Shown here one piece after another: positions 5,052 to 29,780 of a DNA stretch of 64,000 nt (the first letter of the stretch is position 1; each line of letters starts with the position of its first letter). The stretch lies in the IMG/VR virus record IMGVR_UViG_3300042197_000370, one strand, 5' to 3'. The translations under genes were made by a program, and so were the position numbers. The notes beneath the pieces are model-generated. The model was not told the DNA's origin. It worked only from the letters and a program-made list of their open reading frames with translations, and did no database searches. The DNA comes from a virus.

Positions 5052-5642
5052 TTACTCTTGTTTCTCAACTAATTTTTTCACCATGGTATGTAAGCCGGGA
5101 TTGACTTGCAACGCCATTGGCAATAGATTATGTCGAATAAGATTGCGGGTATACTTTGTATCTGTGTTACTAGTATCTTCACACCATGATACACCCTTAC
5201 GCTTGCACCAGTCAACGAATTCGGACTTCCTAGTTGTGAGGAACGGGCGCAAGACATTATTACGAAAGCGGGGAATTAGTTTGGGAGTGCCATGCATACA
5301 TGCCCAAAGATAAGTTTCTACTACGTCATCTAAATGATGCCCAGTTACTACATTACCTAATGGTTCTAAAAACTTATATCGCTCGTTTCGCCAAAATTCT
5401 TCTGGGCTTAAGTCATCGGGCTTTTGACTAGTAAGCATTCCTACGAATAAAGGTAGATTTCTATTAGTGCAGAATTTGGTAACAAATTCAAATGCACGTT
5501 CGCTATTCTCAGTGCCATGATGGAAGAACGCACATGTAACTTTGTGCTTTCTACTTAGAAAGTCTGTGATAGCAACACTATCTACTCCACCGCTAAGTGC
5601 AATGGTAATTTCTTTAGGCAAAGGAAAGAGTAACTTGAGCAT
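5052..5642 (-). CDS. tilS: TilS-like PP-loop ATPase (catalytic domain only)
   Basis: SGGVDS PP-loop, RNERYKFL, TGHHLDDVVETYL, RPFL, W-x-ED-x-SN-x5-RN-x-IR. Only 196 aa, with no C-terminal domains. Confidence 0.8.
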   Translation of the reverse strand: MLKLLFPLPKEITIALSGGVDSVAITDFLSRKHKVTCAFFHHGTENSERAFEFVTKFCTNRNLPLFVGMLTSQKPDDLSPEEFWRNERYKFLEPLGNVVTGHHLDDVVETYLWACMHGTPKLIPRFRNNVLRPFLTTRKSEFVDWCKRKGVSWCEDTSNTDTKYTRNLIRHNLLPMALQVNPGLHTMVKKLVEKQE

Positions 5643-5686: not shown

Positions 5687-6751
5687 TTAACAATGACGTA
5701 TGTATGTCCAGTCGAACTGAGTTCTAGGATCGACTTCTTTTGGTAATATAGATTTAATTTGGGTAATATCTTCTTTAACCATTTCATTAAATCTATTGAA
5801 ATTGTGTTCCAAATCTAGTTGAATATCGTTAATATATTTGGAATAATTGTCTTTAAAGTATTGGATACAACTTATGACGGCCCTTAACCTTTCATAATCA
5901 TCTACTATTGAATCATAGTCAATAGGCAAATATTCTCTAAATGTTTTAAAACCCAACTCTTCTAAACTTTTTAATGTATTAATACACCCTAAAATTATAA
6001 AAGGATGTTTATTGAGTATTGGTCTAAATGTTTTTTCTGTCAGTGTGGCTGAATGAAAGGCTGTTTCAGACACAATACTGAATGAAGTGTTTGAATATAT
6101 TTTAGGATCGTATGGCCAAGGCGATGATACAATAAAATCTAGGTTTTTAGTAAAAGAACTTCTATGAGGATCCATTGGATCTATATCTAAACTTTTATGG
6201 CAGTAACTGATAAAATTTTCAAATTCATCTTCTGTTAAATGATGTAACAGTTCTTGTCTAATGACTTGTTTACTTTTAGGAGATACAATATAAGACCAGT
6301 CTATGTATGATAACATAGAATTTTTATATAACTCATACATCAGTACGGTTCTAGAAAATCTTTCAATCTTGCCAGGAATATACAATCCTCTGCCAAAATT
6401 GTAATTCCATTGATCACTAATCTTATTTTTATTTTTTCCGTAATATTGATGATAGTATGTCGTCAGTTGCATACCGGAAAATGCTACATTACTGCAAGGA
6501 AATTTATAATTTTTATTTCTTACATTGGTAACTATGCAATAACTTATATTATGAGTTTTAAATTCTTTATCTACTAAAGTCCAATGCTGATCATCACTTT
6601 CAGTATATTTGGAATCTTCACTTATATCATCAAGAACCACACAAATATTTTTATTAGGCTTTGCTTCAAAAATAATTTGCCTTAGGTCTTTTCGTAGTTG
6701 TTGTATATCTAACCTATAATAGTTAAACTGTTTTCTTATAGTATAAACCAT
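5687..6751 (-). CDS. Putative glycosyltransferase (GT10-like C-terminal motif)
   Basis: FSIVSET...LTEKTFRPILNKHPFIILG resembles the F-x-L-x2-EN...TEK...P-I motif of GT10-like enzymes; paralogue at 23508. Confidence 0.45.
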   Translation of the reverse strand: MVYTIRKQFNYYRLDIQQLRKDLRQIIFEAKPNKNICVVLDDISEDSKYTESDDQHWTLVDKEFKTHNISYCIVTNVRNKNYKFPCSNVAFSGMQLTTYYHQYYGKNKNKISDQWNYNFGRGLYIPGKIERFSRTVLMYELYKNSMLSYIDWSYIVSPKSKQVIRQELLHHLTEDEFENFISYCHKSLDIDPMDPHRSSFTKNLDFIVSSPWPYDPKIYSNTSFSIVSETAFHSATLTEKTFRPILNKHPFIILGCINTLKSLEELGFKTFREYLPIDYDSIVDDYERLRAVISCIQYFKDNYSKYINDIQLDLEHNFNRFNEMVKEDITQIKSILPKEVDPRTQFDWTYIRHC

Positions 6752-7344
6752 TATTGAAATATATGTCTGTTCTTTTCACCGTAAATCTTTATATATTTAC
6801 CAGCAAGCATATCAGCCATTGCTTCAATAGGACTGCCAGGGTAACTATCTCCGGGTTTTATCATACCTAATTCACTCTGTCTAACGTGAACTAATTCATG
6901 GAACACTGTTCTAAGTATGTCTACAAGATTTCTATTAGCAGAATATACCCAAACACTATCACTGCCCTCTGTATGTGATCCTGTATGATGCCCTTGTTGT
7001 GCTTCTTGGGTATCCATACTTAATTCAATTTTTGGTATTTTTTGTAGATTTAATTTCTTTGCTGCCCATTTAACGAAATTGTCAACTTCACCTTGTAAGT
7101 CAGGGTCAGTGTTATCAACTTCGTCTAGTTTATTCTTTATCCAACTATCAGGAGTTTTCTTATATTTTCTAACGAATAAATCGTGCAATGCTTTTCCTGT
7201 GATCTTGTGTTTAGCACTAATCTTACGCATTAATTTATCTATGGTGTTGTAATCATGTTTTTCAAGGCTAGGTAGGCGTTTAGCGAGTTCCAACGCAGGC
7301 CCCTCGCTAATTGCATTTTCAGTAATAAAGTCTACAGCCCTCAT
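6751..7344 (-). CDS. Putative virion-internal zincin-like metallopeptidase
   Basis: N-terminus MRAVDFITE (CTS-like); HELVH (HExxH) followed by SPIEAMAD. Confidence 0.6.
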   Translation of the reverse strand: MRAVDFITENAISEGPALELAKRLPSLEKHDYNTIDKLMRKISAKHKITGKALHDLFVRKYKKTPDSWIKNKLDEVDNTDPDLQGEVDNFVKWAAKKLNLQKIPKIELSMDTQEAQQGHHTGSHTEGSDSVWVYSANRNLVDILRTVFHELVHVRQSELGMIKPGDSYPGSPIEAMADMLAGKYIKIYGEKNRHIFQ

Positions 7345-7571
7345 TCTAACCCGTAATTGCTAACAGATACAACCTCGTCATCATCCATAGTTGTATGACT
7401 TGTTATTTGTTCTTGTATAAGCCAATTATTGTAGTGTTGGTCGTATACTTCACTAGGAAAGGTTACTTCTTTAAATTTAAAATAATCTTCCATTAATGTA
7501 ACTCTTAGCCAATCATCAAAAGATAAGAAGTCCTTACCCTTAGCAGATTCGTATATGTGTTTAATAGCCAT
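7341..7571 (-). CDS. Hypothetical protein
   Basis: Tightly packed ORF, ATGA overlap with the next gene. Confidence 0.6.
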   Translation of the reverse strand: MAIKHIYESAKGKDFLSFDDWLRVTLMEDYFKFKEVTFPSEVYDQHYNNWLIQEQITSHTTMDDDEVVSVSNYGLE

Positions 7572-7590: not shown

Positions 7591-7597
7591 TATTTAT
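7591..7597 (-). promoter_or_regulatory. T4-like late promoter motif ATAAATA
   Basis: Upstream of the 7571 start; similar to T4 TATAAATA. Confidence 0.5.
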
Positions 7598-8262
7598 CTG
7601 ATTTGGTATTCAACTACGTTTGCTAATTCTGCTAAAAACTGCTCTGTAGTTGGTGTTTTGACCCCTGTTATTTGTAAAGTTACTCTAGGATAATGACTAG
7701 CATTTGCTGTGCTATGGGGTAGATTCTGCCAATCAAATGTTGTAACTTCCCCTACTTTCCACATACTGTGTTGATAGTTCCCATAACTCCAAAACTGTCC
7801 AGGTTGCCAATCAGTTAATGCTACTTGGATTCGTATGACACTATCTGGATCATTTGGGTTCCATTTCTCTAGTTTATCTAAATGTAAGTTCCATACTTCG
7901 CCTGGCTTTTGTACGTGTATGCGATTCATGCAATCATCTAACGCAAATAGTTTGCTGACCTCCTGAAGTACTTTAGGTATATCCCAATTAAGATGAGTAA
8001 TTTGATAATCTTTGCCATATCCAAAACGTTCCAAATCATAATCTTCTGCTTCTAATTCTTCTTCGGGTCTTGACTTGCCAACCTGTCCACGAGTTCTCCA
8101 AGTTGCAGGTTTAGCATTCTCTACCATTTGTTCTACATAGTCAGCAATGTCTAATTTAAACTTTCCTAAACGTATTACTTTATCAAAGTTAGGATCGATA
8201 ACATCATTTCTAAAATGATATTTGCTTCTAGGTTTTGTTGTTTCCCAACTACTTTTCATCAT
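7594..8262 (-). CDS. 2OG-Fe(II) oxygenase, aspartyl/asparaginyl beta-hydroxylase-like
   Basis: QKPGEVWNLHLD (HxD), RIQVAL, FDWQNLPHSTAN (distal His), RVTLQITG (2OG-binding Arg). Confidence 0.7.
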   Translation of the reverse strand: MMKSSWETTKPRSKYHFRNDVIDPNFDKVIRLGKFKLDIADYVEQMVENAKPATWRTRGQVGKSRPEEELEAEDYDLERFGYGKDYQITHLNWDIPKVLQEVSKLFALDDCMNRIHVQKPGEVWNLHLDKLEKWNPNDPDSVIRIQVALTDWQPGQFWSYGNYQHSMWKVGEVTTFDWQNLPHSTANASHYPRVTLQITGVKTPTTEQFLAELANVVEYQIR

Positions 8263-8930
8263 AACACCTTTACATTAATATCTTTAGTTTTATAGTCTTG
8301 TCTATACTTTTCCGGTGGAGGTTCAATTCTACAGAATCCGCAAGTCTCAAGGTTATTGAAAGTAATCAATCCACCCTTCATAGTAAATGTATTATCTAAT
8401 GAGGGCAATGTTCCTAATTTACCGTGCCATGCTTGCATTAGACCTTCATTCTGTCTATCTATGATTTTAGCCATAGTTTTTAAGTCTACATAATATTTAT
8501 CGTATTTTGGGTATGTGATATTAAAATGACCACAACGTACCCACCATCCTAAACAAGCATCATTAGGTCTATGTACTAGTATAACCGGACATTCAGGCCA
8601 TAATTCTTTAAGATACTTTACATTCTCATAATAACTGAATATATGACTCTTTACTATTTTGACCCCAGTGCCGTTAAATGGCTTGTCAAATAGCACCTCA
8701 GCCTGTTCTTTAGTTAATGTTGTCATATCCTCTGGTAAGTCAAATTCCATACCAGGATCAAAATACGCACCAAGATGCATAAGGTGCATTACGCCTCCGT
8801 CTGCATCATGGTGGTATGTTCTTTCGTCACTGTAGTCGCTTCTGTCAATACTTGGACTATAGTAAATGTTTTTTACTACGCTACTCCACTTAGAGCCAGG
8901 AGCGCCTGCTACGAAAATATATTTCATCAT
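8259..8930 (-). CDS. Sulfotransferase-like P-loop protein
   Basis: IFVAGAPGSKWSS resembles the 5'-PSB loop; IVKSH and VILVHRP follow the sulfotransferase pattern. Confidence 0.5.
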   Translation of the reverse strand: MMKYIFVAGAPGSKWSSVVKNIYYSPSIDRSDYSDERTYHHDADGGVMHLMHLGAYFDPGMEFDLPEDMTTLTKEQAEVLFDKPFNGTGVKIVKSHIFSYYENVKYLKELWPECPVILVHRPNDACLGWWVRCGHFNITYPKYDKYYVDLKTMAKIIDRQNEGLMQAWHGKLGTLPSLDNTFTMKGGLITFNNLETCGFCRIEPPPEKYRQDYKTKDINVKVL

Positions 8931-9979
8931 TTAGCCTTTTGTGCGATATCTTCTTTGTAAATAGCATCTTGTTTAACTACGGCAGCAATCCACCATACTA
9001 AATCTTTAAGTGCTTTTTTAGTTAATTGTTTTTCAAGTGTAACCATTGCTTTATTAACATCATCACCTATAACCCATTCGTATTTGCCTGTATCTTTTTC
9101 GATATTGGCAACACTCTCAGGATCCTTAGACATTTCCAACAATGCTTTAACTAACTTATCTCTATTAGGATTGTTCTTGTCAATCCATAGTGATTTCTGT
9201 AATACGTCACGGTAGTTCTTTATTAATAGATAGGCATCGTAAAATTCACCTGAAGGAGCATTTCCCCATCGTTTGGCATATACGTCAGCGAAATGTAGTC
9301 CAGGAAAGTTTGGGTCTGCGACCACCCTCCCTGTCTTAATATCCATAACACCTTGTGAGAACCAATCAACATTTTCTTTAAGTTGTTTTGGATGTTTAAA
9401 GTATGCCGCAGTTGTCTCACGTGTAACATTGAGTTCACCTCGCATATACGCAAGTCTACGTTCGTTACCCTTCATACCCGCAACATAAATGACTTTTTTA
9501 TTGAAACAATCCTGATATTCTCTAACTGTTTTTAACGGGCCACAGATTAACATAGTGATAGCCATTAGATCAGGGTTCATGCCTGATCCTGCACTAAATC
9601 TGACTTCTTTGAACGGATCACTATCAGTTCTACGTCCAACTACGATTGTAAGATTTTGCAATCCTATTGGAGCGTAATCTTTGTAATTGTAATCGACCTT
9701 CTGTAATAAAAAACTTTCAGCATTACCACCATGTGCAACCATAATAGTTTTTGGATCCTTACGTAGTTCATTATGAAATTTGTTGAAACCAGTAACGTCA
9801 TTTATTCCTGGAATATTTTCTATAATGACTTTCTCACCTAACTTCTTTTCAAGTTCTTTGGCTACAATTCTAGCCCATACATCTGTGCCACCGCCCACCT
9901 GTTGCGGAACTATCATACGATAGTCCGCAAAGGCAGAAGTAGCGAACAGCATTGTAAATAACGCTATTAACTTCTTCAT
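8927..9979 (-). CDS. tctC: Tripartite tricarboxylate transporter solute-binding protein (TctC/Bug family)
   Basis: Signal peptide, then IVPQQVGGGTDVWARIVAKELEKKLGEKVIIENIPG, the TctC signature (P-x3-GG-x2-D-x2-AR...EN-x-PG). Confidence 0.85.
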   Translation of the reverse strand: MKKLIALFTMLFATSAFADYRMIVPQQVGGGTDVWARIVAKELEKKLGEKVIIENIPGINDVTGFNKFHNELRKDPKTIMVAHGGNAESFLLQKVDYNYKDYAPIGLQNLTIVVGRRTDSDPFKEVRFSAGSGMNPDLMAITMLICGPLKTVREYQDCFNKKVIYVAGMKGNERRLAYMRGELNVTRETTAAYFKHPKQLKENVDWFSQGVMDIKTGRVVADPNFPGLHFADVYAKRWGNAPSGEFYDAYLLIKNYRDVLQKSLWIDKNNPNRDKLVKALLEMSKDPESVANIEKDTGKYEWVIGDDVNKAMVTLEKQLTKKALKDLVWWIAAVVKQDAIYKEDIAQKAK

Positions 9980-9989
9980 TTAGTTCTCC

Positions 9990-10547
9990 TTAGAATAATC
10001 TCTTTTCGATTGAAATGCCATAACGATCACGCTTGACTCCGTTACCAAAGTCAAAATAATCATACTTAACATTTACTGCCCAACGCGGGTCTAACTTGTA
10101 CTTTACTGCAACTCTTGGTCCTTCGTAGTAGTCAACATCTCTTCCACCAAAACCTTCACGATATGCATAACCTAATTTAACTTGAACGTTATCAGTTACT
10201 TTGTATTTTACGCCTGCTTCTGCCTGCCAAAATTCTGTACTAGGCTTAAGGCTTTGATGCTTTTGTCCAACAGCAGTATTAACATAGAACATGTTATAGT
10301 CATAGTTTAATTTAACCATATAACGATTAGTCACACGACTATCTTGTTCACGTTCAACATTTCTAAAACCCAAACCCCAAGTAAAGTTTTTGTTAAGTTT
10401 AGTCTGCCAGTCTACTGACAATGCATATTGGTCATTGGTAGTATTTCGTTGGTCATCAAAGCGATAACCTAACTCAATCTTATCTTCTGCGTATGCTGCC
10501 GTACCTGCAGCCATAAGTGCTAAAATAGCAATCATCTTCTTAAACAT
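9990..10547 (-). CDS. Outer-membrane beta-barrel (porin-like) protein
   Basis: Signal peptide ending AYA, alternating aromatic amphipathic strands, C-terminal Phe (EKRLF). Confidence 0.7.
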   Translation of the reverse strand: MFKKMIAILALMAAGTAAYAEDKIELGYRFDDQRNTTNDQYALSVDWQTKLNKNFTWGLGFRNVEREQDSRVTNRYMVKLNYDYNMFYVNTAVGQKHQSLKPSTEFWQAEAGVKYKVTDNVQVKLGYAYREGFGGRDVDYYEGPRVAVKYKLDPRWAVNVKYDYFDFGNGVKRDRYGISIEKRLF

Positions 10548-11991
10548 ATTTTATCCTCGTTTTGTTGAAAAATACGCCGTATATAATGGCTACGAACGTC
10601 AGAGCCATTAATGATCCACTGATGGGTCGTGTAAAAATATCAGTAAAATCATATAACTTACTGTATTGTAAGAAAGTACCTTCAAGTCTATCTGCCAATA
10701 CATATCCTATAACAAGTGCTGCCCTACTAAATTTGTACTTGCGTAATGCAAGACCAAAAGCGCAACACATTGCAAAGAAAACATAATCTTCCCAGTAGCC
10801 AGTATATTGTACGCTACTCCAAACTAATAATGCCATTACAGGCCAAAAATAATAACTGAACGGCAAGTTAGTTATGCGAACTGCATAACGTATAAAAAAT
10901 AATCCTAATACAAAACTTAATAGCAGACTCCACATGTAACTACTTGCTAAGTTATCAAAGAACGATAAGTCATTCAATAAAGATGGAGAACCTAGTTCAA
11001 TACCTACTAATAAAAATAGTGCAATGATAATTGCTTCAAAAGGCGCACCGGGTATACCAAACAACACAGTAGGAACATAACTTGTTGCTTTCTGTGCATT
11101 GTTTGCACCCTCACAACCTATTACACCCTTGACGTTACCATCACCAAATACAATCTTTTCATTTTTGTTTAGTGCAACTGTTTGTCCATATGCTAACCAA
11201 TCTGCAACACTGCCACCTATACCGGGTATCACACCTACAATTGCACCGATGAGTCCACCTCGTAGTCCGTCCCATTTATGTACCCAACTATCTACAAATC
11301 CTTGCCATATTTGTTGCCATTCTGTTTTAATATTTTGTATTCTTTCTTGTGTATGTCTATTTTGATATGCTTCTAATAGTTCAGGTATTGCTAACACACC
11401 GGCAAGTAATGGAGCAAGTTGTATACCGCCACCTAGATAGTCCCAACCAAATGTCCAACGTTCTGCGCCTGTTATTGGATTCTGTCCTACTAACCCCAAG
11501 AATACACCTAGTGCTAACGCTAATATACCTCTGAACCAATACTTGTTATTGATAAAGCAAACACTAGCAAACGCTAATAGTAGAAACGACAATATTTCAG
11601 GTATTCCAAACTTTAATATCAATGGAGCATAGTAAGGCAAGAACATAAAAACTAATGCCCCCCATAGTATACCATTAACAGTACTTGTGCTTAGTGCGGC
11701 TCCTAATGCTCTTGCAGCCTCACCCCTTTTAGTCATGGGGAATCCATCTACCATAGTGGCAGCACTTCCACTTGCTCCGGGTATGTTCATAACTACGCTA
11801 GCAAAACTATCTCCTATCGTGGCTGCTACAACAAGTGATGTAGTGAATACTACTAATGAATATGGTTCAGCACGAAAAATGTCTAAAAACCCAAATATTG
11901 TGATAAGACCTACGCCTGCGCCTGCTACGGGTATAATACCAAATAAAAACCCATAAAGTGTGCCTAAAATTAATGAGACTATGTATTCCAT
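10540..11991 (-). CDS. tctA: Tripartite tricarboxylate transporter permease TctA
   Basis: Start moved to MEYIVSL (ATG 11991). Motifs MNIPGASGSAATMVDGFPM, GVIPGIGG, EGANNA, PTVLFGIPG and GIELGSPSL; about 12 TM segments. Confidence 0.88.
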   Translation of the reverse strand: MEYIVSLILGTLYGFLFGIIPVAGAGVGLITIFGFLDIFRAEPYSLVVFTTSLVVAATIGDSFASVVMNIPGASGSAATMVDGFPMTKRGEAARALGAALSTSTVNGILWGALVFMFLPYYAPLILKFGIPEILSFLLLAFASVCFINNKYWFRGILALALGVFLGLVGQNPITGAERWTFGWDYLGGGIQLAPLLAGVLAIPELLEAYQNRHTQERIQNIKTEWQQIWQGFVDSWVHKWDGLRGGLIGAIVGVIPGIGGSVADWLAYGQTVALNKNEKIVFGDGNVKGVIGCEGANNAQKATSYVPTVLFGIPGAPFEAIIIALFLLVGIELGSPSLLNDLSFFDNLASSYMWSLLLSFVLGLFFIRYAVRITNLPFSYYFWPVMALLVWSSVQYTGYWEDYVFFAMCCAFGLALRKYKFSRAALVIGYVLADRLEGTFLQYSKLYDFTDIFTRPISGSLMALTFVAIIYGVFFNKTRIKYV

Positions 11992-12014
11992 GATAAGTAA
12001 TGTACTGAGAAAGA

Positions 12015-12021
12015 TATTTAT
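12015..12021 (-). promoter_or_regulatory. Late promoter motif ATAAATA for the tctA operon (ATAAGTA at 11993-11999 on + may serve the methyltransferase)
   Basis: Lies in the 70 nt AT-rich divergent gap. Confidence 0.5.
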
Positions 12022-12061
12022 CCCAATCAGAGAAAAATTTTTAATTTTGAGAAAATTTATT

Positions 12062-12796
12062 ATGAATACTAAAATTTTTAAACTAGTTATAAAAAATTTG
12101 CGTGAATCATTCAATTTACCTAAGTATGCTACACTTTCTAGGGACATAAGCGAATTTACTATAGTAAAAGAACTACCTTGGACTCCTGCACGATTTGACA
12201 AGTTCAAGCATAAAATAGAACAGACATTAGACTTGCCTACTGATTTAAACGGATCCGTTAAAGATATTGTCGATGACTTAGACGTACGGTACTCAGGAAG
12301 ATTCTTCGGTGAGATATGGAAACCCAGCACAGAAAAATATAGTTACACAGGCTGGCAACTTGTTGAAGAAGTAAACAAGTTAAAACCACGTGCAGTATTA
12401 GATGTGGGTTGTGGATACAATCAATTTAAAGACCGTATCCCAAATCTTGTAGGTATCGATCCATACAATAACTGTGCTGACTATCAAGTTGACATACTTG
12501 AGTTTGCCGCAGTAGCAGGAAGTTTTGATGCTATCATAGCATTGGGTTCAATTAATTTTAACAGTAAAGAAGATATTGAACAACGACTAGCCAATTGTGT
12601 TAAACTGTTAGCAGATAAAGGTAAGATGTTCTTTAGAGTTAACCCTGGTATTCAACATGAAAAGGGACCATGGGTTGATGTTTTCCCATGGTCGTTTGAG
12701 ATAGCACACGAATTTGCTAAAAAATTCAATCTACATTTAGAAACCTTTAAGAAAGATGCCAATAATAGATTGTATTTTGTTTATAGCAAAGTCTAA
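12062..12796 (+). CDS. Class I SAM-dependent methyltransferase with an extra N-terminal helical domain
   Basis: Start moved to MNTKIF (12062) so it does not overlap tctA. Motifs VLDVGCG, VGIDPY, FDAIIALGSINF and LADKGKMFFRVNPG. Confidence 0.75.
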   Translation: MNTKIFKLVIKNLRESFNLPKYATLSRDISEFTIVKELPWTPARFDKFKHKIEQTLDLPTDLNGSVKDIVDDLDVRYSGRFFGEIWKPSTEKYSYTGWQLVEEVNKLKPRAVLDVGCGYNQFKDRIPNLVGIDPYNNCADYQVDILEFAAVAGSFDAIIALGSINFNSKEDIEQRLANCVKLLADKGKMFFRVNPGIQHEKGPWVDVFPWSFEIAHEFAKKFNLHLETFKKDANNRLYFVYSKV

Positions 12797-16935: not shown

Positions 16936-17312
16936 TTGTCTAAGTCTCCTGCAAAGTGTGACATATATCTATCCCCTTTTATTTTCTGTACTGGCGCCAT
17001 AGTTTTATTAAAACCAGTTATAGCCTGCATAAAATCTTTTTTACTATTAGCAGCCACATCTTGCATCTGCTCTCTTTCATTTGGCTTAAGACTCATATAT
17101 GTTTTTAAGAATCCTACAATCTCATCCATAGACAATTTTGCTTTGGTATTGTCTCTAAAGAGTATAGGATAGTTGCCATCTACGTCAAATGCTTTTCTAA
17201 GTTGCATGACTAAGTGTGGTACCTTATCTTTGTCTGGATCGGCAGGAACTTCTTCCTGATCGTCAAAGTCAGGATCAAATTTGCCTTCTTTTAATATTTC
17301 ACTAATTTTCAT
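16932..17312 (-). CDS. Putative virion-internal protein
   Basis: CTS-like N-terminus MKISEILKE. Confidence 0.55.
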   Translation of the reverse strand: MKISEILKEGKFDPDFDDQEEVPADPDKDKVPHLVMQLRKAFDVDGNYPILFRDNTKAKLSMDEIVGFLKTYMSLKPNEREQMQDVAANSKKDFMQAITGFNKTMAPVQKIKGDRYMSHFAGDLDK

Positions 17313-18511
17313 AATGTTCCCTCATATCTTTCAAACCATGGATCAATGATAACTATAGTACCATCTTTACGTTGCATAGCATTGTCTGTATGCAAGTCCC
17401 AATACATTTTATTAATCTTACCTGTTCTGTATAGTAATTCCATTACAGTATACAGTAGTTGCATCTCTGCATGTTTATTTTCATTACCCTTTACCATTGA
17501 TAAATTTTGCCACTTCAAAGCAAACTGATTTGCTTTATCAGTGTGAAAATCATACCATGTTTTTGGATATCCCAACAAATCATCTACTTTATTCCATGAT
17601 ACTTTATTTGAAACGTAATCACTAAAGAACCAAACTATACCTTGTGTAAAACTATCTTCTTTAATGGGATATAGTTGTTCCATACTAACCTGTATGTAAT
17701 TCTTATTACCCAATTTAAATTCTATGTAATCTTTACCTTGTATAGGTATAAACTTTGGTAAGCATGCTAAGTCTTTATGTTGTGTACAAAACTCATAGAA
17801 CTTTTTGAATACGTATGCAGCCTGTGTAATATCTTTACTGTCAGGCATAATGACTTTTATCACATGCCCTTCATCTCTACTCCATACAGTAGCATCAGCG
17901 CCATGACCTAATTGCTTATAGCCTGCATTTTTAAGTTCCTGAGTGATTCGTTTCGCCTCAGGAGTTCCTGACTCTGCTTCGTCTACATCTACTTCATTAA
18001 CGATAACAGTGGAACCCGGTTTAGGATGTGTCAATCCTATCTTGTCTGGATATAATGGACCCGATTCAACACGTTCGCCGCCATCAAAATACTTTAACTC
18101 TACAGGCAACTCATCCCAACCTAATGCAGCCGCAGCCATGATACGATGATTACCTTCATTGACCCAGGCTTCACCGTTGTATGCCACCATAACAAAAGGA
18201 GCATATTCTTCACCATTTCTTTTTAGTGGTAACTTACCTGTATCTTTCATTATTTTCATAATGGCTTCTAGGTCTTTTTCTCTGACGTTCTTTTGTTCGC
18301 CACGCATGCCGGGCAATCTCTTCAACAAACTAACAGGTAGTTTAGGTTCAGGTCTTACAATACCAGTTGTTGATCCCATATATGGTACACCGTAACTGTC
18401 ACGACCTCTGCTCTTTGCGTATTCAACTTTTCCAGCCAGCCAATCCTCATTAGGAACATCTGTAATCAGCATGCTCTCATTTAATTTAGAGGTAAATTCA
18501 CTGGCTCTCAT
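17309..18511 (-). CDS. ParB/Srx-like plus protein-kinase-like fusion, putative virion-internal
   Basis: MRASEF...LNE leader; WVNEGNHRIMAA (ParB/Srx); LGHGADATV, VIKV, MEQL, DLHTDN and IIDP (kinase fold). Confidence 0.65.
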   Translation of the reverse strand: MRASEFTSKLNESMLITDVPNEDWLAGKVEYAKSRGRDSYGVPYMGSTTGIVRPEPKLPVSLLKRLPGMRGEQKNVREKDLEAIMKIMKDTGKLPLKRNGEEYAPFVMVAYNGEAWVNEGNHRIMAAAALGWDELPVELKYFDGGERVESGPLYPDKIGLTHPKPGSTVIVNEVDVDEAESGTPEAKRITQELKNAGYKQLGHGADATVWSRDEGHVIKVIMPDSKDITQAAYVFKKFYEFCTQHKDLACLPKFIPIQGKDYIEFKLGNKNYIQVSMEQLYPIKEDSFTQGIVWFFSDYVSNKVSWNKVDDLLGYPKTWYDFHTDKANQFALKWQNLSMVKGNENKHAEMQLLYTVMELLYRTGKINKMYWDLHTDNAMQRKDGTIVIIDPWFERYEGTL

Positions 18512-25623: not shown

Positions 25624-26271
25624 TTATTTTTCTGGAAGATAATCAGCACTTTCGGAAACCATTGTTTCTTCAGTGTTTTCTGCTAGTTCACCGCTCATAC
25701 CTATGTCTAACATTTTAACAACGGTCTGTGCTAATTTAGGATTTTTCTGAGTTGATGGGTATAAACTCATAACCATTGCAGTCTTTTGTCTATCATTAAG
25801 ATTGGGCCATGCATTACGTATTTCTGTAGCACTTTTAATGCCGGGGCCAAACTCTACAGTTGGTAGATATGCAATGTAAGCATGCTTACTAAATGGTTGT
25901 AGATTCTTTCCTGTCCATGGCTGAAAGTACGCAGGGCTACCATCTTTTTTAGTACCACCAGGCTTAGGCTGTTCGGTCTTGTCTTTCTCGCTACGTACAA
26001 ATATTAGTACATCCTCTTGTGGATCGTATTTACTTGTAATCTCTTCTGCTTTAAAAGGACTCTTAACTTGTACAAAACGTCCAGGCTCAACACCTGCAAG
26101 TTTCGCTAGTTTCTCTTTTATTGAGAAGGGGAAGGGTCTTGTTTTAGTATCGTTAGTTGCTGCCACGTATACATCTGCTTGTGGGAAGGCTTCTAATGCA
26201 CTTTTATATAATGCATAATGTCCTGCATGAAATGGATGAAACCCGCCGGGCATAACAACTATCTGTTTCAT
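25624..26271 (-). CDS. HIGH-motif nucleotidyltransferase (cytidylyltransferase-like)
   Basis: PGGFHPFHAGH, VRSEKD, SATEIR. Confidence 0.75.
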   Translation of the reverse strand: MKQIVVMPGGFHPFHAGHYALYKSALEAFPQADVYVAATNDTKTRPFPFSIKEKLAKLAGVEPGRFVQVKSPFKAEEITSKYDPQEDVLIFVRSEKDKTEQPKPGGTKKDGSPAYFQPWTGKNLQPFSKHAYIAYLPTVEFGPGIKSATEIRNAWPNLNDRQKTAMVMSLYPSTQKNPKLAQTVVKMLDIGMSGELAENTEETMVSESADYLPEK

Positions 26272-26829: not shown

Positions 26830-27535
26830 CTAAATACTCCATTTTCTCAGAGTATTTATGCTTATTCTGCTCAGATTCTAATTTGTAGATTTTGGACGAA
26901 AGTATCCCGGGAAACACTAATCTTAGCAAAGTCAGCATACTTTCTTCGTTGTAGTCTATATAATAACTATTATGCATCCAACGGCTTGAGTTGATTCTAC
27001 CATTGGAAACCGCGTGAACTAATGCACTGGAAATCTTAACACTATCTCTAGTTTTGTAATTTTCAACAAAAGAGCATATTTGGTCTACTTTATCACTATC
27101 TAGTCTGATGCCCTTTAAGTAAATCCTATAGTCATGTTTAGGCTTATTCTTAAAGAATTTGACTCCCGGAGCAATAACGTTGGCCTCAGTATATTGGATA
27201 TCACTACCAATCTCTTCCAGTGTTTTTAGAAGTTCTAAGTCATTAGAAAACACAGCAAACGTATCATACTCAATTCGTATGATTGAGTCCTTCTTATATG
27301 TATTACGCCATTTAATAAAGAATTCAATAGCGTTTAAATCTAAATCATCATTGCTATACTGTTTTCCATAATGCCATGGATCCTGCCTACGCTTCTCTAT
27401 TTTCTTTTGGAAGTCTTTAACTGTAGTACAATAATAAGTAAATCTTACACCCAACAGTTGGCATGTTGCGCGGTACTTGTACTTGTTAAAGAATAGTTTA
27501 TCACGGTCTTCCAGGTTCAACTTGAATGATTCCAT
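26813..27535 (-). CDS. Hypothetical protein
   Basis: 240-aa ORF in the operon. Confidence 0.65.
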   Translation of the reverse strand: MESFKLNLEDRDKLFFNKYKYRATCQLLGVRFTYYCTTVKDFQKKIEKRRQDPWHYGKQYSNDDLDLNAIEFFIKWRNTYKKDSIIRIEYDTFAVFSNDLELLKTLEEIGSDIQYTEANVIAPGVKFFKNKPKHDYRIYLKGIRLDSDKVDQICSFVENYKTRDSVKISSALVHAVSNGRINSSRWMHNSYYIDYNEESMLTLLRLVFPGILSSKIYKLESEQNKHKYSEKMEYLDGENS

Positions 27536-29780
27536 CTTCTCCCACCATTGCGGTTACTTTTTGTGAAACACTAAAATCAATTTCTTGATTTTCATTTAAC
27601 ACGGCCATTACGTTAGCACTGTTGATACGCTCAAACAAAATCTTTTTAGATAGTGGGACACGAATCATTTCATCAATCTTACGTGCTAATGGTCTAGCAC
27701 CCATCTTCTTATCATAACCCTTATCAGCCAAATACTCAACAACAGGTTCGCTAAGGTTGAGAGTAATGTTATGCTTTTCTAATAGACTCTTCTTAAGTTC
27801 ATCAGTAAACTTAATTACAATCTTTTTAATGGATAGCATATCAAGTTTATTAAACTTACATACAAGGTCAAGACGATTACGAAACTCAGGCTTAAAGAAG
27901 TCCTTCAATGCTTTCTCATCTTCTCCTGACTTTTCCATGTCACCGAAGCCAATGTTATTACGTTCACTATCAGCACTACCCAAATTACTGGTCATGATAA
28001 TGATAGTATTTTTACAACTGACCTTCTTACCATTACTACCTGTGATTGTACCCTCATCAAGCATTTGTAAAAAGATATTGAAGATATCGGGGTGAGCCTT
28101 TTCAACTTCATCAAACAACATGATAGCATGTGGATTCTTACTCAAGTCACTAATCAAACGACCACCTTGTACTTGGCTATCACCAAAGCCAACATAACCA
28201 GGAGGAGGACCAATCAATGAACTAACACTATGCTTTTCACTGTACTCGCTCATGTCATATTTGAGCAATGGCATGTCGAGATTTTTACTCAATAATTTAG
28301 CAAGTTCTGTTTTACCAGTACCAGTAGGACCCAAAAATAAGAAACTTGCTGTTGGTTTAGTTTCATTACCAATACCGGCAAATGAAACGTAAACACGTTC
28401 AAGAACCTTTTCAACAGTTTCATCTTGTCCGTACAACTTACTCTTAACATTGATATCAAGGTTTTGTATCCTATCAAAATTATCACTATTCAATTTGTCA
28501 GCGGGTACGCCAGTAAACTTCTCAACTTGGTCATGCACTAGTTGCTTAGTAATGATTGCATCTTCATTACCCAATACTTTTTGTTTAGCACAGGCTGCAT
28601 CAAGCAAGTCAATGCTCTTGTCAGGATTCTTACGGTCATTGATATAACGACCTGCATTTTCTACAGCCGCTTTAATTGCTTCATCAGTAATATTAACTTT
28701 ATGGAAGTCATTAAGTCTTGCAGCCAATCCACTGAGAATGCGAATCGTAGTTTCTTCAGTAGGCTCATCAATGCTTACACGATAGAATCTGCGCATCAAT
28801 GCACGATCCTTTTCGAAACTCTCGTAGAATTCTTCCCATGTTGTACTTGCAATAACTTTCAATGTTCCCTTAGTGATTGCAGGCTTGATCATGTTAGCAA
28901 AGTCAACACTACCATTGCTGCCACTTCCTGCGTTCTGCATAGTATGTGCTTCGTCAATGAATAGAATGGCTTTCTTTTTAGTATTCAATGCATCAATAAC
29001 GTGTTTGACCTTTTCTTCAAAGTCACCACGGTAGCGACTGCCTGCAAGCAAACTACCAATCTCAAGGCTGTATAGTTCGTGATCTTCAAGGAACTCAGGA
29101 ACTTCATTGTTTACAATTGCTAGTGCGATGCCCTCTGCGATGGCAGTTTTACCAACGCCCGGGTCACCCACCATCAATACGTTACTCTTAAATCGCTTAG
29201 CCAATACGTTAATGATATCATCAATCTCTTTATGGCGACCAATGACAGGTTCTAACTTACCTTGTCGTGCAAGTTGAGTCAGATTAATTGTGTGTTCTTC
29301 AAGGATTTCATCTGCTTGATTATCGGTAAGTTTATTGCCGTAATCACTTCCCTTATAAGTTTTCTGCCAGTGTGCAACAAAGTCTTGCTTGTTTACACCG
29401 TACTTCAACAAGAAATAATGGGCATGACTATTACCCTCTGCTGCCATGCTCAAATACAAATCAATTGTAAGTACTTGTCTACGACCAGTAAACAATACTT
29501 GTGTTACACTACGATTCATAACACGCTCAAGGCTGTTAGTCTTACGTGGCATAACATCAGGGTCTTTACTTTCAATAGCATGCAATCCGTTAAGATATGC
29601 TTCTATCTCCGAAACCATCAAATCAGTATCAACATTAAGAGTGTTCAAACATTTCTTAAAGGGAGGGTGAGTAACCAATGCTAACAGTAAATGTTCAATA
29701 GTAACATATTGATGTTTACGTTCTTTAGCACTGGCTATTGCCTGCTCAATAATGTTTTCAATTTCAGGTGAGTTATTCAA
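27501..29780 (-). CDS. clpA: ATP-dependent Clp protease ATPase subunit ClpA
   Basis: Clp N-domain (HQYVTIEHLLLAL), two AAA+ modules (GDPGVGKT, GPTGTGKT), IGF ClpP-docking loop, no ClpB M-domain; TTG start with AAGGA RBS. Confidence 0.93.
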   Translation of the reverse strand: MNNSPEIENIIEQAIASAKERKHQYVTIEHLLLALVTHPPFKKCLNTLNVDTDLMVSEIEAYLNGLHAIESKDPDVMPRKTNSLERVMNRSVTQVLFTGRRQVLTIDLYLSMAAEGNSHAHYFLLKYGVNKQDFVAHWQKTYKGSDYGNKLTDNQADEILEEHTINLTQLARQGKLEPVIGRHKEIDDIINVLAKRFKSNVLMVGDPGVGKTAIAEGIALAIVNNEVPEFLEDHELYSLEIGSLLAGSRYRGDFEEKVKHVIDALNTKKKAILFIDEAHTMQNAGSGSNGSVDFANMIKPAITKGTLKVIASTTWEEFYESFEKDRALMRRFYRVSIDEPTEETTIRILSGLAARLNDFHKVNITDEAIKAAVENAGRYINDRKNPDKSIDLLDAACAKQKVLGNEDAIITKQLVHDQVEKFTGVPADKLNSDNFDRIQNLDINVKSKLYGQDETVEKVLERVYVSFAGIGNETKPTASFLFLGPTGTGKTELAKLLSKNLDMPLLKYDMSEYSEKHSVSSLIGPPPGYVGFGDSQVQGGRLISDLSKNPHAIMLFDEVEKAHPDIFNIFLQMLDEGTITGSNGKKVSCKNTIIIMTSNLGSADSERNNIGFGDMEKSGEDEKALKDFFKPEFRNRLDLVCKFNKLDMLSIKKIVIKFTDELKKSLLEKHNITLNLSEPVVEYLADKGYDKKMGARPLARKIDEMIRVPLSKKILFERINSANVMAVLNENQEIDFSVSQKVTAMVGEDGIIQVEPGRP

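Follow-up and report, generated by a model that had tools for sequence, protein, structure and literature searches.

Why would a bacteriophage encode parts of a tripartite tricarboxylate transporter (TTT) beside an oxygenase, a sulfotransferase-like protein and a methyltransferase? The question is raised by a six-gene locus in a stretch of 64,000 nucleotides from IMG/VR virus record IMGVR_UViG_3300042197_000370, referred to here as the window. A first-pass annotation had proposed that the phage builds its own path for one ligand through the outer membrane, the periplasm and the inner membrane, and pairs this path with three tailoring enzymes. The best reading of the locus, to which we give about an even chance, is that a TTT system lacking TctB would import an organic carboxylate, which a 2-oxoglutarate (2OG)/Fe(II) oxygenase, a sulfotransferase-fold enzyme and an S-adenosylmethionine (SAM)-dependent methyltransferase would then tailor. 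Gene content, folds, catalytic motifs, co-inheritance and the absence of TctB are direct observations on which this reading draws. Of the earlier proposal, the synteny, the enzyme families and the absence of TctB are supported. The complete uptake route as a conserved unit, and the place given in it to an outer-membrane barrel, find no support.

The transporter proteins

The identity of the permease is certain from its sequence. TctA matches Pfam PF01970 at 3.6e-90 (303 bits) over profile positions 2-423 of 423, and it is 64-96% identical to the TctA proteins of related phage loci. The accompanying binding protein is far more divergent. Taken alone, it reaches 18.4 bits against the Pfam TctC family, below the 27-bit cut-off. 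A profile of its 21-sequence family matches BugD at 8.6e-8 as well as six other TctC structures, and an hhalign comparison of this type (C350, 350 residues) with the canonical phage Bug family gives a probability of 97.7% over the N-terminal domain. These profile matches identify it as a divergent Bug/TctC binding protein, and a signal peptide is present. Relatives of the protein number 760 in the protein database; nearly all are unnamed, and many lie on contigs of 50-360 kb that carry phage genes.

The first-pass annotation saw no room for a TctB gene, and this is borne out. Between positions 6500 and 13500 of the window, no open reading frame (ORF) of 35-200 residues has two or more hydrophobic segments, and there is thus no TctB gene in this interval. 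The TctB family (PF07331, E<=1) was not found in the genomes of five relatives, complete ones included. A complete 359.5-kb genome of the window's type encodes one TctA and no TctB. The small ORF downstream of the operon was considered as a TctB substitute and ruled out, since its product is soluble and acidic rather than membrane-bound. In the lineage of a 359-kb phage (L003), an ORF of 76 residues with three transmembrane segments and a DUF6552 assignment (L003:7600-7830) abuts the start of tctA and could be a TctB surrogate. The window and most loci have no equivalent of it. Small ORFs with several transmembrane segments occur near tctA in 14 of 58 loci, and their position is not fixed.

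For the third envelope protein, the first-pass annotation was right about the family, and its place in a conserved route is not supported. The protein matches the barrel family OMP_b-brl (PF13505) with 35.8 bits and 1.2e-8 (cut-off 28.7), and its sequence has a signal peptide, alternating amphipathic strands and a C-terminal Phe. Homologues are confined to the window's clade and the loci L022-L026, amounting to 3 of 40 TctC-anchored loci. Its mature part of about 165 residues would allow for 8-10 strands; this makes it too small for a classical porin and small even for a hydrophilic pore, and a role as an outer-membrane channel is putative.

Conservation of the module among phages

Synteny was assessed in about 230 IMG/VR loci anchored on TctC, on the sulfotransferase-like protein or on the oxygenase. 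Anchor counts refer to non-redundant loci with a flank of 4 kb on both sides, and enzymes were scored within 6 kb. Near-identical IMG/VR contigs keep all six genes and differ in their flanks. Across 80 IMG/VR loci retrieved with the TctC profile (47-93% identity), TctA always adjoins TctC, and the three enzymes are usually present. Gene order and orientation are shuffled among these loci. In L003, for example, tctA and tctC flank the oxygenase gene; in L005 and L010, tctA has the sulfotransferase-like gene upstream of it. Preservation of the module through such rearrangement is good evidence of a functional link. A 155-kb phage (L005) has an unrelated gene of 294 codons with a GAGGRF loop between tctA and tctC (L005:9105-9989); it was rejected as an oxygenase, being non-homologous, and has no Pfam match.

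The first-pass annotation had named synteny of the six genes, in advance, as a check on its proposal, and this check was passed. All 40 loci anchored on the C350-type TctC have TctA beside the binding protein; the methyltransferase is found in 34, the sulfotransferase-like protein in 24, the oxygenase in 22 and the barrel in 3. The picture differs when the enzymes serve as anchors. Every one of the 36 sulfotransferase-anchored loci has all three enzymes, and 31 have a binding protein of either type, whereas TctA is present in 6 and the barrel in 2. Similarly, the 28 oxygenase-anchored loci contain the methyltransferase (27), the sulfotransferase-like protein (26), all three enzymes (25) and a binding protein (26), whereas TctA occurs in 4 and the barrel in 1. 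As a conserved unit, the complete phage-built uptake route is therefore not borne out. The enzyme families are also the more abundant, with at least 584 confirmed IMG/VR stretches for the sulfotransferase-like family and at least 539 for the oxygenase family, versus 160 for the C350-type TctC.

The dominant arrangement consists of a divergent methyltransferase gene, a gene for a protein of 320 residues, the sulfotransferase-like gene and the oxygenase gene, without TctA. The 320-residue protein (C320) is a canonical secreted Bug/TctC protein, matching 7ndr at 1.8e-27 and also AdpC, Bug27, BugD and the terephthalate-binding protein (TBP). It is only distantly related to the C350 type of the window. 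In the window's type, C350 and TctA together occupy the slot that C320 fills elsewhere, between the methyltransferase and the sulfotransferase-like gene. Complete or near-complete genomes carrying the orphan protein (345 kb, and 364 kb with terminal repeats) lack TctA and TctB genome-wide. The recurrent unit is thus a binding protein with three enzymes, and the window represents a less common form, whose binding-protein slot holds TctA together with the TctC that matches it. In a small clade, a barrel gene is present as well.

Some variants lack a binding protein. In the same slot they have a di-iron protein resembling ferritin or the small subunit of ribonucleotide reductase, a class I GATase/peptidase C26 protein, a cupin and an APS-kinase fusion (APS, adenosine 5'-phosphosulfate). 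Examples are L132:4621-8004, L134:1301-3955 and L111:2357-4780, the last with the di-iron/GATase pair twice. It would fit these gene contents if such variants synthesised the substrate instead of importing it. One further contig has a module 75% identical to that of the window (L011:9113-14178) and also encodes a DctP binding protein of the tripartite ATP-independent periplasmic (TRAP) type, a second canonical TctC, a short TctB-like ORF, a second TctA and ketoacyl-synthase and AMP-binding genes; this contig may be phage or cellular DNA.

Predicted activities of the three enzymes

The first-pass annotation assigned the three enzymes to sulfotransferase-like, 2OG-Fe(II) oxygenase and SAM methyltransferase families, and folds or motifs agree with each assignment. 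Sequence-profile searches of the PDB with the three proteins gave nothing significant.

The P-loop protein is predicted with high confidence (predicted local distance difference test, pLDDT, 91.9). In an exhaustive VIA comparison with 48,161 chains, the seven best matches of this model are all sulfotransferases (Z 8.4-11.0, 163-175 residues aligned). TPST1 leads with Z 11.0, followed by TPST2, the sulfotransferase domain of an olefin synthase (OLS), Stf1 and Stf9, whereas kinases reach at most Z 8.3. The modelled protein has a sulfotransferase fold. Foldseek returned nothing at E<=0.001 for this model and weakly listed kinases and TPST2, and NCBIfam has no match for the protein. Invariant or near-invariant residues are G9, P11, G12, W15, S16, H96, R121, W129 and W130. 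H96 is invariant, and R121, W129 and W130 are invariant or nearly so. From the sequence, the K-S-H96 and R121...WW elements may correspond to the catalytic base and 3'-phosphate motifs of sulfotransferases. A kinase was rejected as the first choice, since the protein has no GK[ST] Walker lysine and kinases rank below the seven sulfotransferases.

Relatives of the module supply a further hint of sulfation. In 29 of 242 loci, a gene near the trio encodes a fusion protein of 260-290 residues, in which an APS-kinase domain (PF01583, up to 2.6e-11) is joined to an HxGH nucleotidyltransferase; the count covers flanks of up to 8 kb, and most of these genes lie 1-4 kb from the trio. Examples are L163:9906-10775, L139:6136-6927 and L048:10340-11191, with 26 other loci; one of the 29 is a TctA-type locus. 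The fusions may be compact synthases of 3'-phosphoadenosine 5'-phosphosulfate (PAPS), and their proximity to the trio supports PAPS-dependent chemistry for the family. The window encodes a stand-alone cytidylyltransferase-like protein of 215 residues (25624-26271), which shares just the N-terminal HxGH motif with the fusions.

The oxygenase is also well modelled (pLDDT 93). Its best VIA match is proline 3-hydroxylase (Z 11.9, 20-22% identity), and other fold matches include PiuC, PHD2 and L-proline cis-4-hydroxylase; Foldseek places it among 2OG oxygenases at E 2e-6 to 1e-5. The H127-x-D129...H183...R193 constellation is invariant in 24 sequences, down to 28% identity, and R193 is presumably the basic residue for the C5 carboxylate of 2OG. 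The protein has no Pfam match; a translated search (tblastn) pairs it with a cyanophage 2OG-Fe(II) oxygenase at 5e-6. By identity, its closest solved relatives act on free imino acids, which are carboxylates, and this supports the tailoring of an imported acid.

The methyltransferase can be placed in the class I SAM-dependent type by its sequence. Motif I, VLDVGCG, is invariant among homologues. Pfam matches are below threshold for the window's protein, and a relative in L056 passes Methyltransf_23 with 32.6 bits. Its Atlas neighbours are viral AdoMet-methyltransferase clusters.

A proposed mechanism

During infection, the phage would install a TctB-less TTT importer in the host envelope. The secreted, divergent TctC would catch an organic carboxylate in the periplasm and hand it over to the phage TctA. 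In the window's clade, the small outer-membrane barrel would be co-translated and may ease entry or serve another role at the surface. In the cytoplasm, the 2OG/Fe(II) oxygenase would hydroxylate the imported compound or a close derivative, the sulfotransferase-fold enzyme would move sulfate from PAPS, most simply onto the new hydroxyl group, and the SAM methyltransferase would methylate the compound or a derivative of it. The order of these reactions, the use of PAPS, late timing and the action of the enzymes on the imported molecule are what we infer. The window would then be a derived variant of the much commoner module, whose orphan canonical Bug/TctC protein presumably docks on the host TctAB.

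A bolder extension, which we regard as distinctly unlikely, is that these phages capture an organic acid, or synthesise it in some variants, and hydroxylate, O-sulfate and methylate it to give a metabolite specific to the phage. Such a metabolite would have its own part to play in infection: it might carry a signal, inhibit an enzyme or a defence of the host, or act as the donor when virions or DNA are decorated. The window would hold the first TctB-less TTT with a dedicated outer-membrane entry protein.

Alternative explanations

Several results weigh against import followed by tailoring. We know of no characterised TTT system that does without TctB, and the function of TctA in its absence is putative. 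All three enzymes lie within 6 kb in only 16 of the 40 TctA-type loci, so that the transporter evidently does not need the full trio. The P-loop protein scores 17.5 bits against Sulfotransfer_3, where the cut-off is 27 bits, and its conserved GxPGSxWS loop has no invariant Lys or Arg, x being K, R, H, G or M and the Pro being followed by Gly. A PAPS-synthesis gene was not found in the window. The top fold matches, tyrosylprotein sulfotransferases and prolyl hydroxylases, modify proteins, and the match of the oxygenase to the AlkB-type ABH3 (Z 10.3) makes a macromolecular substrate possible. These last matches point to the main rival, that the target of the trio is a macromolecule, for example phage DNA, a protein that is injected or belongs to the virion, or a component of the host envelope, and that the transporter supplies a co-substrate or building block, for example 2OG or an attached acid. 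We consider it unlikely, although the fold matches keep it in play. Tyrosylprotein sulfotransferases are the best folds of the sulfotransferase-like protein (Z 10.3-11.0), the oxygenase matches prolyl hydroxylases and ABH3 nearly as well (Z 10.3-11.4) as free-proline hydroxylases (11.9), and the motif upstream of the operon also precedes many genes of the window's structural region. However, the methyltransferase is small and Methyltransf_11/23-like, with no DNA-methyltransferase match seen, and the module holds no conserved candidate for a substrate protein or precursor peptide, the small acidic ORF being confined to close relatives. Moreover, a macromolecular target would explain the tight link to a solute-binding protein only indirectly.

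Two other explanations are less likely. The genes could be neighbours that merely travel together in a hypervariable accessory island, the transporter being a stand-alone device for nutrient uptake like cyanophage PstS. Flanking genes do differ even among close relatives, other enzymes come and go at the locus, and one or more of the three enzymes are missing within 6 kb in 24 of the 40 TctA-type loci. Yet adjacency outlasts many changes of order and strand, down to 47% TctC identity, and genes in the window are translationally coupled through overlaps of 4 and 8 nt. A TctC-family binding protein is present in 57 of 64 enzyme-anchored loci, and two unrelated-looking TctC subfamilies fill the same slot. 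Chance company of this kind is quite improbable. More improbable still is that the binding protein senses an external or phage-made small molecule, with the enzymes making or destroying the signal. A model for it exists in Bordetella, where BctC works with the BctDE two-component system, and most phages of the group have an orphan binding protein and no permease. However, orphan Bug proteins are generally taken to share TctAB permeases, the loci show no recurrent sensor kinase, regulator or exporter, and the permease added in the window's variant argues for transport. The locus analysis gave no pointer to arbitrium-like signalling or to iron or sulfur scavenging, which the first-pass annotation had also entertained.

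Origin of the transporter pair and its likely substrate

The nearest true cellular relatives of the pair are 33-36% identical for TctA and about 30% for TctC, and they occur as pairs in Halomonadaceae, Rhodobacterales and some Bacillaceae. Their gene order is C-A-B, with TctB separate or possibly fused. In Rhodobacterales (e.g., L260:5923-7935), the TctA ORF has 670 residues, about 180 more than usual. Its extra C-terminal 230 residues have no Pfam match, and the ORF may be a TctA-TctB fusion. The cellular pairs adjoin genes for PrpF, PrpD/MmgE or TcuA/TcuB-like proteins, and none has the three enzymes beside it. PrpF, PrpD/MmgE and TcuA/TcuB act on aconitate, methylcitrate and tricarballylate. 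Given these neighbours, the cellular relatives look like tricarboxylate importers, and the family together with this neighbourhood suggests a carboxylate as the substrate class of the phage system.

Matches of 40-50% identity for TctA and TctC come from metagenome-assembled genomes of inconsistent taxonomy, about half of which carry further genes of the phage module. Such contigs with the phage-type pair (L245-L252) are labelled Legionellales, Weeksellaceae, Omnitrophota, Ignavibacteriaceae, Chitinophagales and Rickettsiales, and they are probably phage contigs that were binned in error. A recent acquisition from a host was rejected, as the best real cellular TctA is only 33-36% identical. The low cellular identity and the probable misbinning of the closer matches indicate that the pair has long been in phages and descends from a TTT subfamily of the tricarboxylate type, with loss of TctB.

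Gene layout, phage context and control signals

The window is phage DNA, as it encodes a T4-type DNA polymerase, a tail tube protein, a Lon-like protease and PhoH. Its family B DNA polymerase shares 49% identity with the enzymes of Sinorhizobium phage Phosso and Agrobacterium phage Atu_ph07 (470-490 kb) and 42-44% with those of Rak2-like jumbo phages. The GC content is about 37%, and a search for tRNA genes found none. The source is an uncultured aquatic jumbo phage.

The ORF list confirms the six genes where the first-pass annotation had placed them, five on the minus strand and a divergent methyltransferase gene, as well as the 70-nt spacing between the latter and tctA (Table 1). The operon is read in the order tctA, barrel, TctC-like, P-loop and oxygenase-like gene. 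Its junctions are an overlap of 8 nt, a gap of 10 nt and two overlaps of 4 nt. In the ORF list, tctA reaches as far as GTG 12330; ATG 11991, in the same frame, agrees with the Pfam match and with homologues, as does the methyltransferase start at ATG 12062 with its own homologues.

Table 1. Coordinates of the module and adjoining features in the window.
Feature	Positions	Strand	Remark
tctA, TctA large permease of TTT transporter, 483 aa	10540..11991	-	first gene of the operon
Small outer-membrane beta-barrel protein, 185 aa	9990..10547	-	8-nt overlap with tctA
Divergent TctC/Bug-family periplasmic binding protein (C350 type), 350 aa	8927..9979	-	signal peptide
Sulfotransferase-fold P-loop protein, 223 aa, cytoplasmic, probable PAPS-dependent transferase	8259..8930	-	assigned by fold
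2OG/Fe(II) oxygenase-fold protein, 222 aa, cytoplasmic	7594..8262	-	assigned by fold and motif
Class I SAM-dependent methyltransferase, 244 aa	12062..12796	+	divergent from the operon
Divergent control region, 70 nt	11992..12061	.	between tctA and the methyltransferase gene
Small acidic ORF, 76 aa, doubtful member	7341..7571	-	own ATAAATA upstream

The small acidic ORF is kept in the closest relatives only, at 38-55% identity. Between the module and the DNA polymerase lies a PP-loop ATPase gene (ATP_bind_3, 5.6e-33; 5052-5642), which is kept in close relatives. Elsewhere, the window encodes a Lon/ATP-dependent protease homologue of 759 residues (27501-29780; phrog_4871, 2e-236), in place of which relatives have ClpB and DnaJ near the module, and a protein of 400 residues (17309-18511) whose C-terminal half is protein-kinase-like (phrog_15752, 3e-10).

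The operon has an ATAAATA motif on the minus strand at 12015-12021, 24 nt upstream of the tctA ATG. The motif recurs in 30 of 69 non-redundant gaps between the methyltransferase gene and the operon in relatives. It is rarer in the window than expected by chance (22 copies versus 32), and about 16 of the 22 copies, judged by reading coordinates, lie within 60 nt upstream of a start codon, many of them in the region of the tail tube gene. By analogy with the T4 late promoter TATAAATA, the motif suggests that transcription of the operon may be under phage control and probably late. Scans for sigma-70 promoters and terminators gave nothing above chance.

Significance and comparison with known systems

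A DNA search of the locus against cultured phages gave no match, and none of the six proteins belongs to a PHROGs family. When 50,697 phage records were searched by tblastn with the sulfotransferase-like protein and the oxygenase, just a single-cell marine virus and one weak cyanophage match appeared; the module has no cultured model. In 2014, a tctA domain match on SUP05 viral contigs was reported among putative auxiliary genes (PMC4164917), and a 2019 review (PMC6359870) cited it again. The full-text literature search found nothing on the module beyond this match. All parts belong to known superfamilies, and their combination is undescribed in the literature found.

With at least 539-584 IMG/VR stretches, the enzyme trio is among the commoner uncharacterised accessory modules of large aquatic phages. 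It raises the questions of whether a TTT permease can function without TctB, whether phage Bug proteins hijack host TctAB as PstS does PstCAB, which sulfated metabolite, if any, these phages make, and why some of them bring their own PAPS supply. If the proposed activities are real, organic-acid uptake and sulfation chemistry would join the known ways in which phages rewire host metabolism.

The closest characterised transporters are TctCBA of Salmonella enterica and BctCBA of Bordetella pertussis (TTT family, Transporter Classification 2.A.80). They share with the phage system a TctA permease of the 12-transmembrane type encoded together with a secreted TctC/Bug-fold protein, and the cellular relatives of the phage pair suggest a carboxylate substrate here as well. 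In contrast to these systems, the phage locus lacks TctB, has the order A-(barrel)-C instead of C-B-A, encodes a TctC too divergent for Pfam to recognise, and keeps company with three enzymes that are missing beside its cellular relatives. The commoner form of the module recalls the orphan proteins BugD, BugE and Bug27 of Bordetella and other Burkholderiales, and AdpC and TBP, with matches of E 1e-21 to 1e-27. Unlike cellular orphans, C320 is carried by phages whose complete genomes lack TctA and TctB, and it always stands in an operon with the sulfotransferase-like and oxygenase genes. A phage precedent is PstS of cyanophages, which binds phosphate in the periplasm and works with the host PstCAB. 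There, too, a host-type uptake system receives its binding protein from the phage during infection. PstS belongs to another class of transporter with another substrate, and the window's phage adds a permease, an outer-membrane protein and enzymes.

The enzymes likewise resemble known families while departing from them in detail. With PAPS sulfotransferases (TPST1/2, the olefin synthase/CurM-type sulfotransferase domain, Stf0/1/9 and Sulfotransfer_3), the phage protein shares the fold, the N-terminal phosphate-binding loop and, in relatives, a link to APS-kinase genes; its K-S-H and R...WW elements may stand for the catalytic base and the 3'-phosphate site. It differs in its size of about 200-220 residues, in having no conserved basic residue in the loop and in scoring below the Pfam threshold. 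The oxygenase shares the double-stranded beta-helix, the HxD...H triad and the conserved Arg with proline 3-hydroxylase, L-proline cis-4-hydroxylase and prolyl 4-hydroxylases, and is set apart from them by an identity of at most 20-22% and by the lack of a Pfam match.

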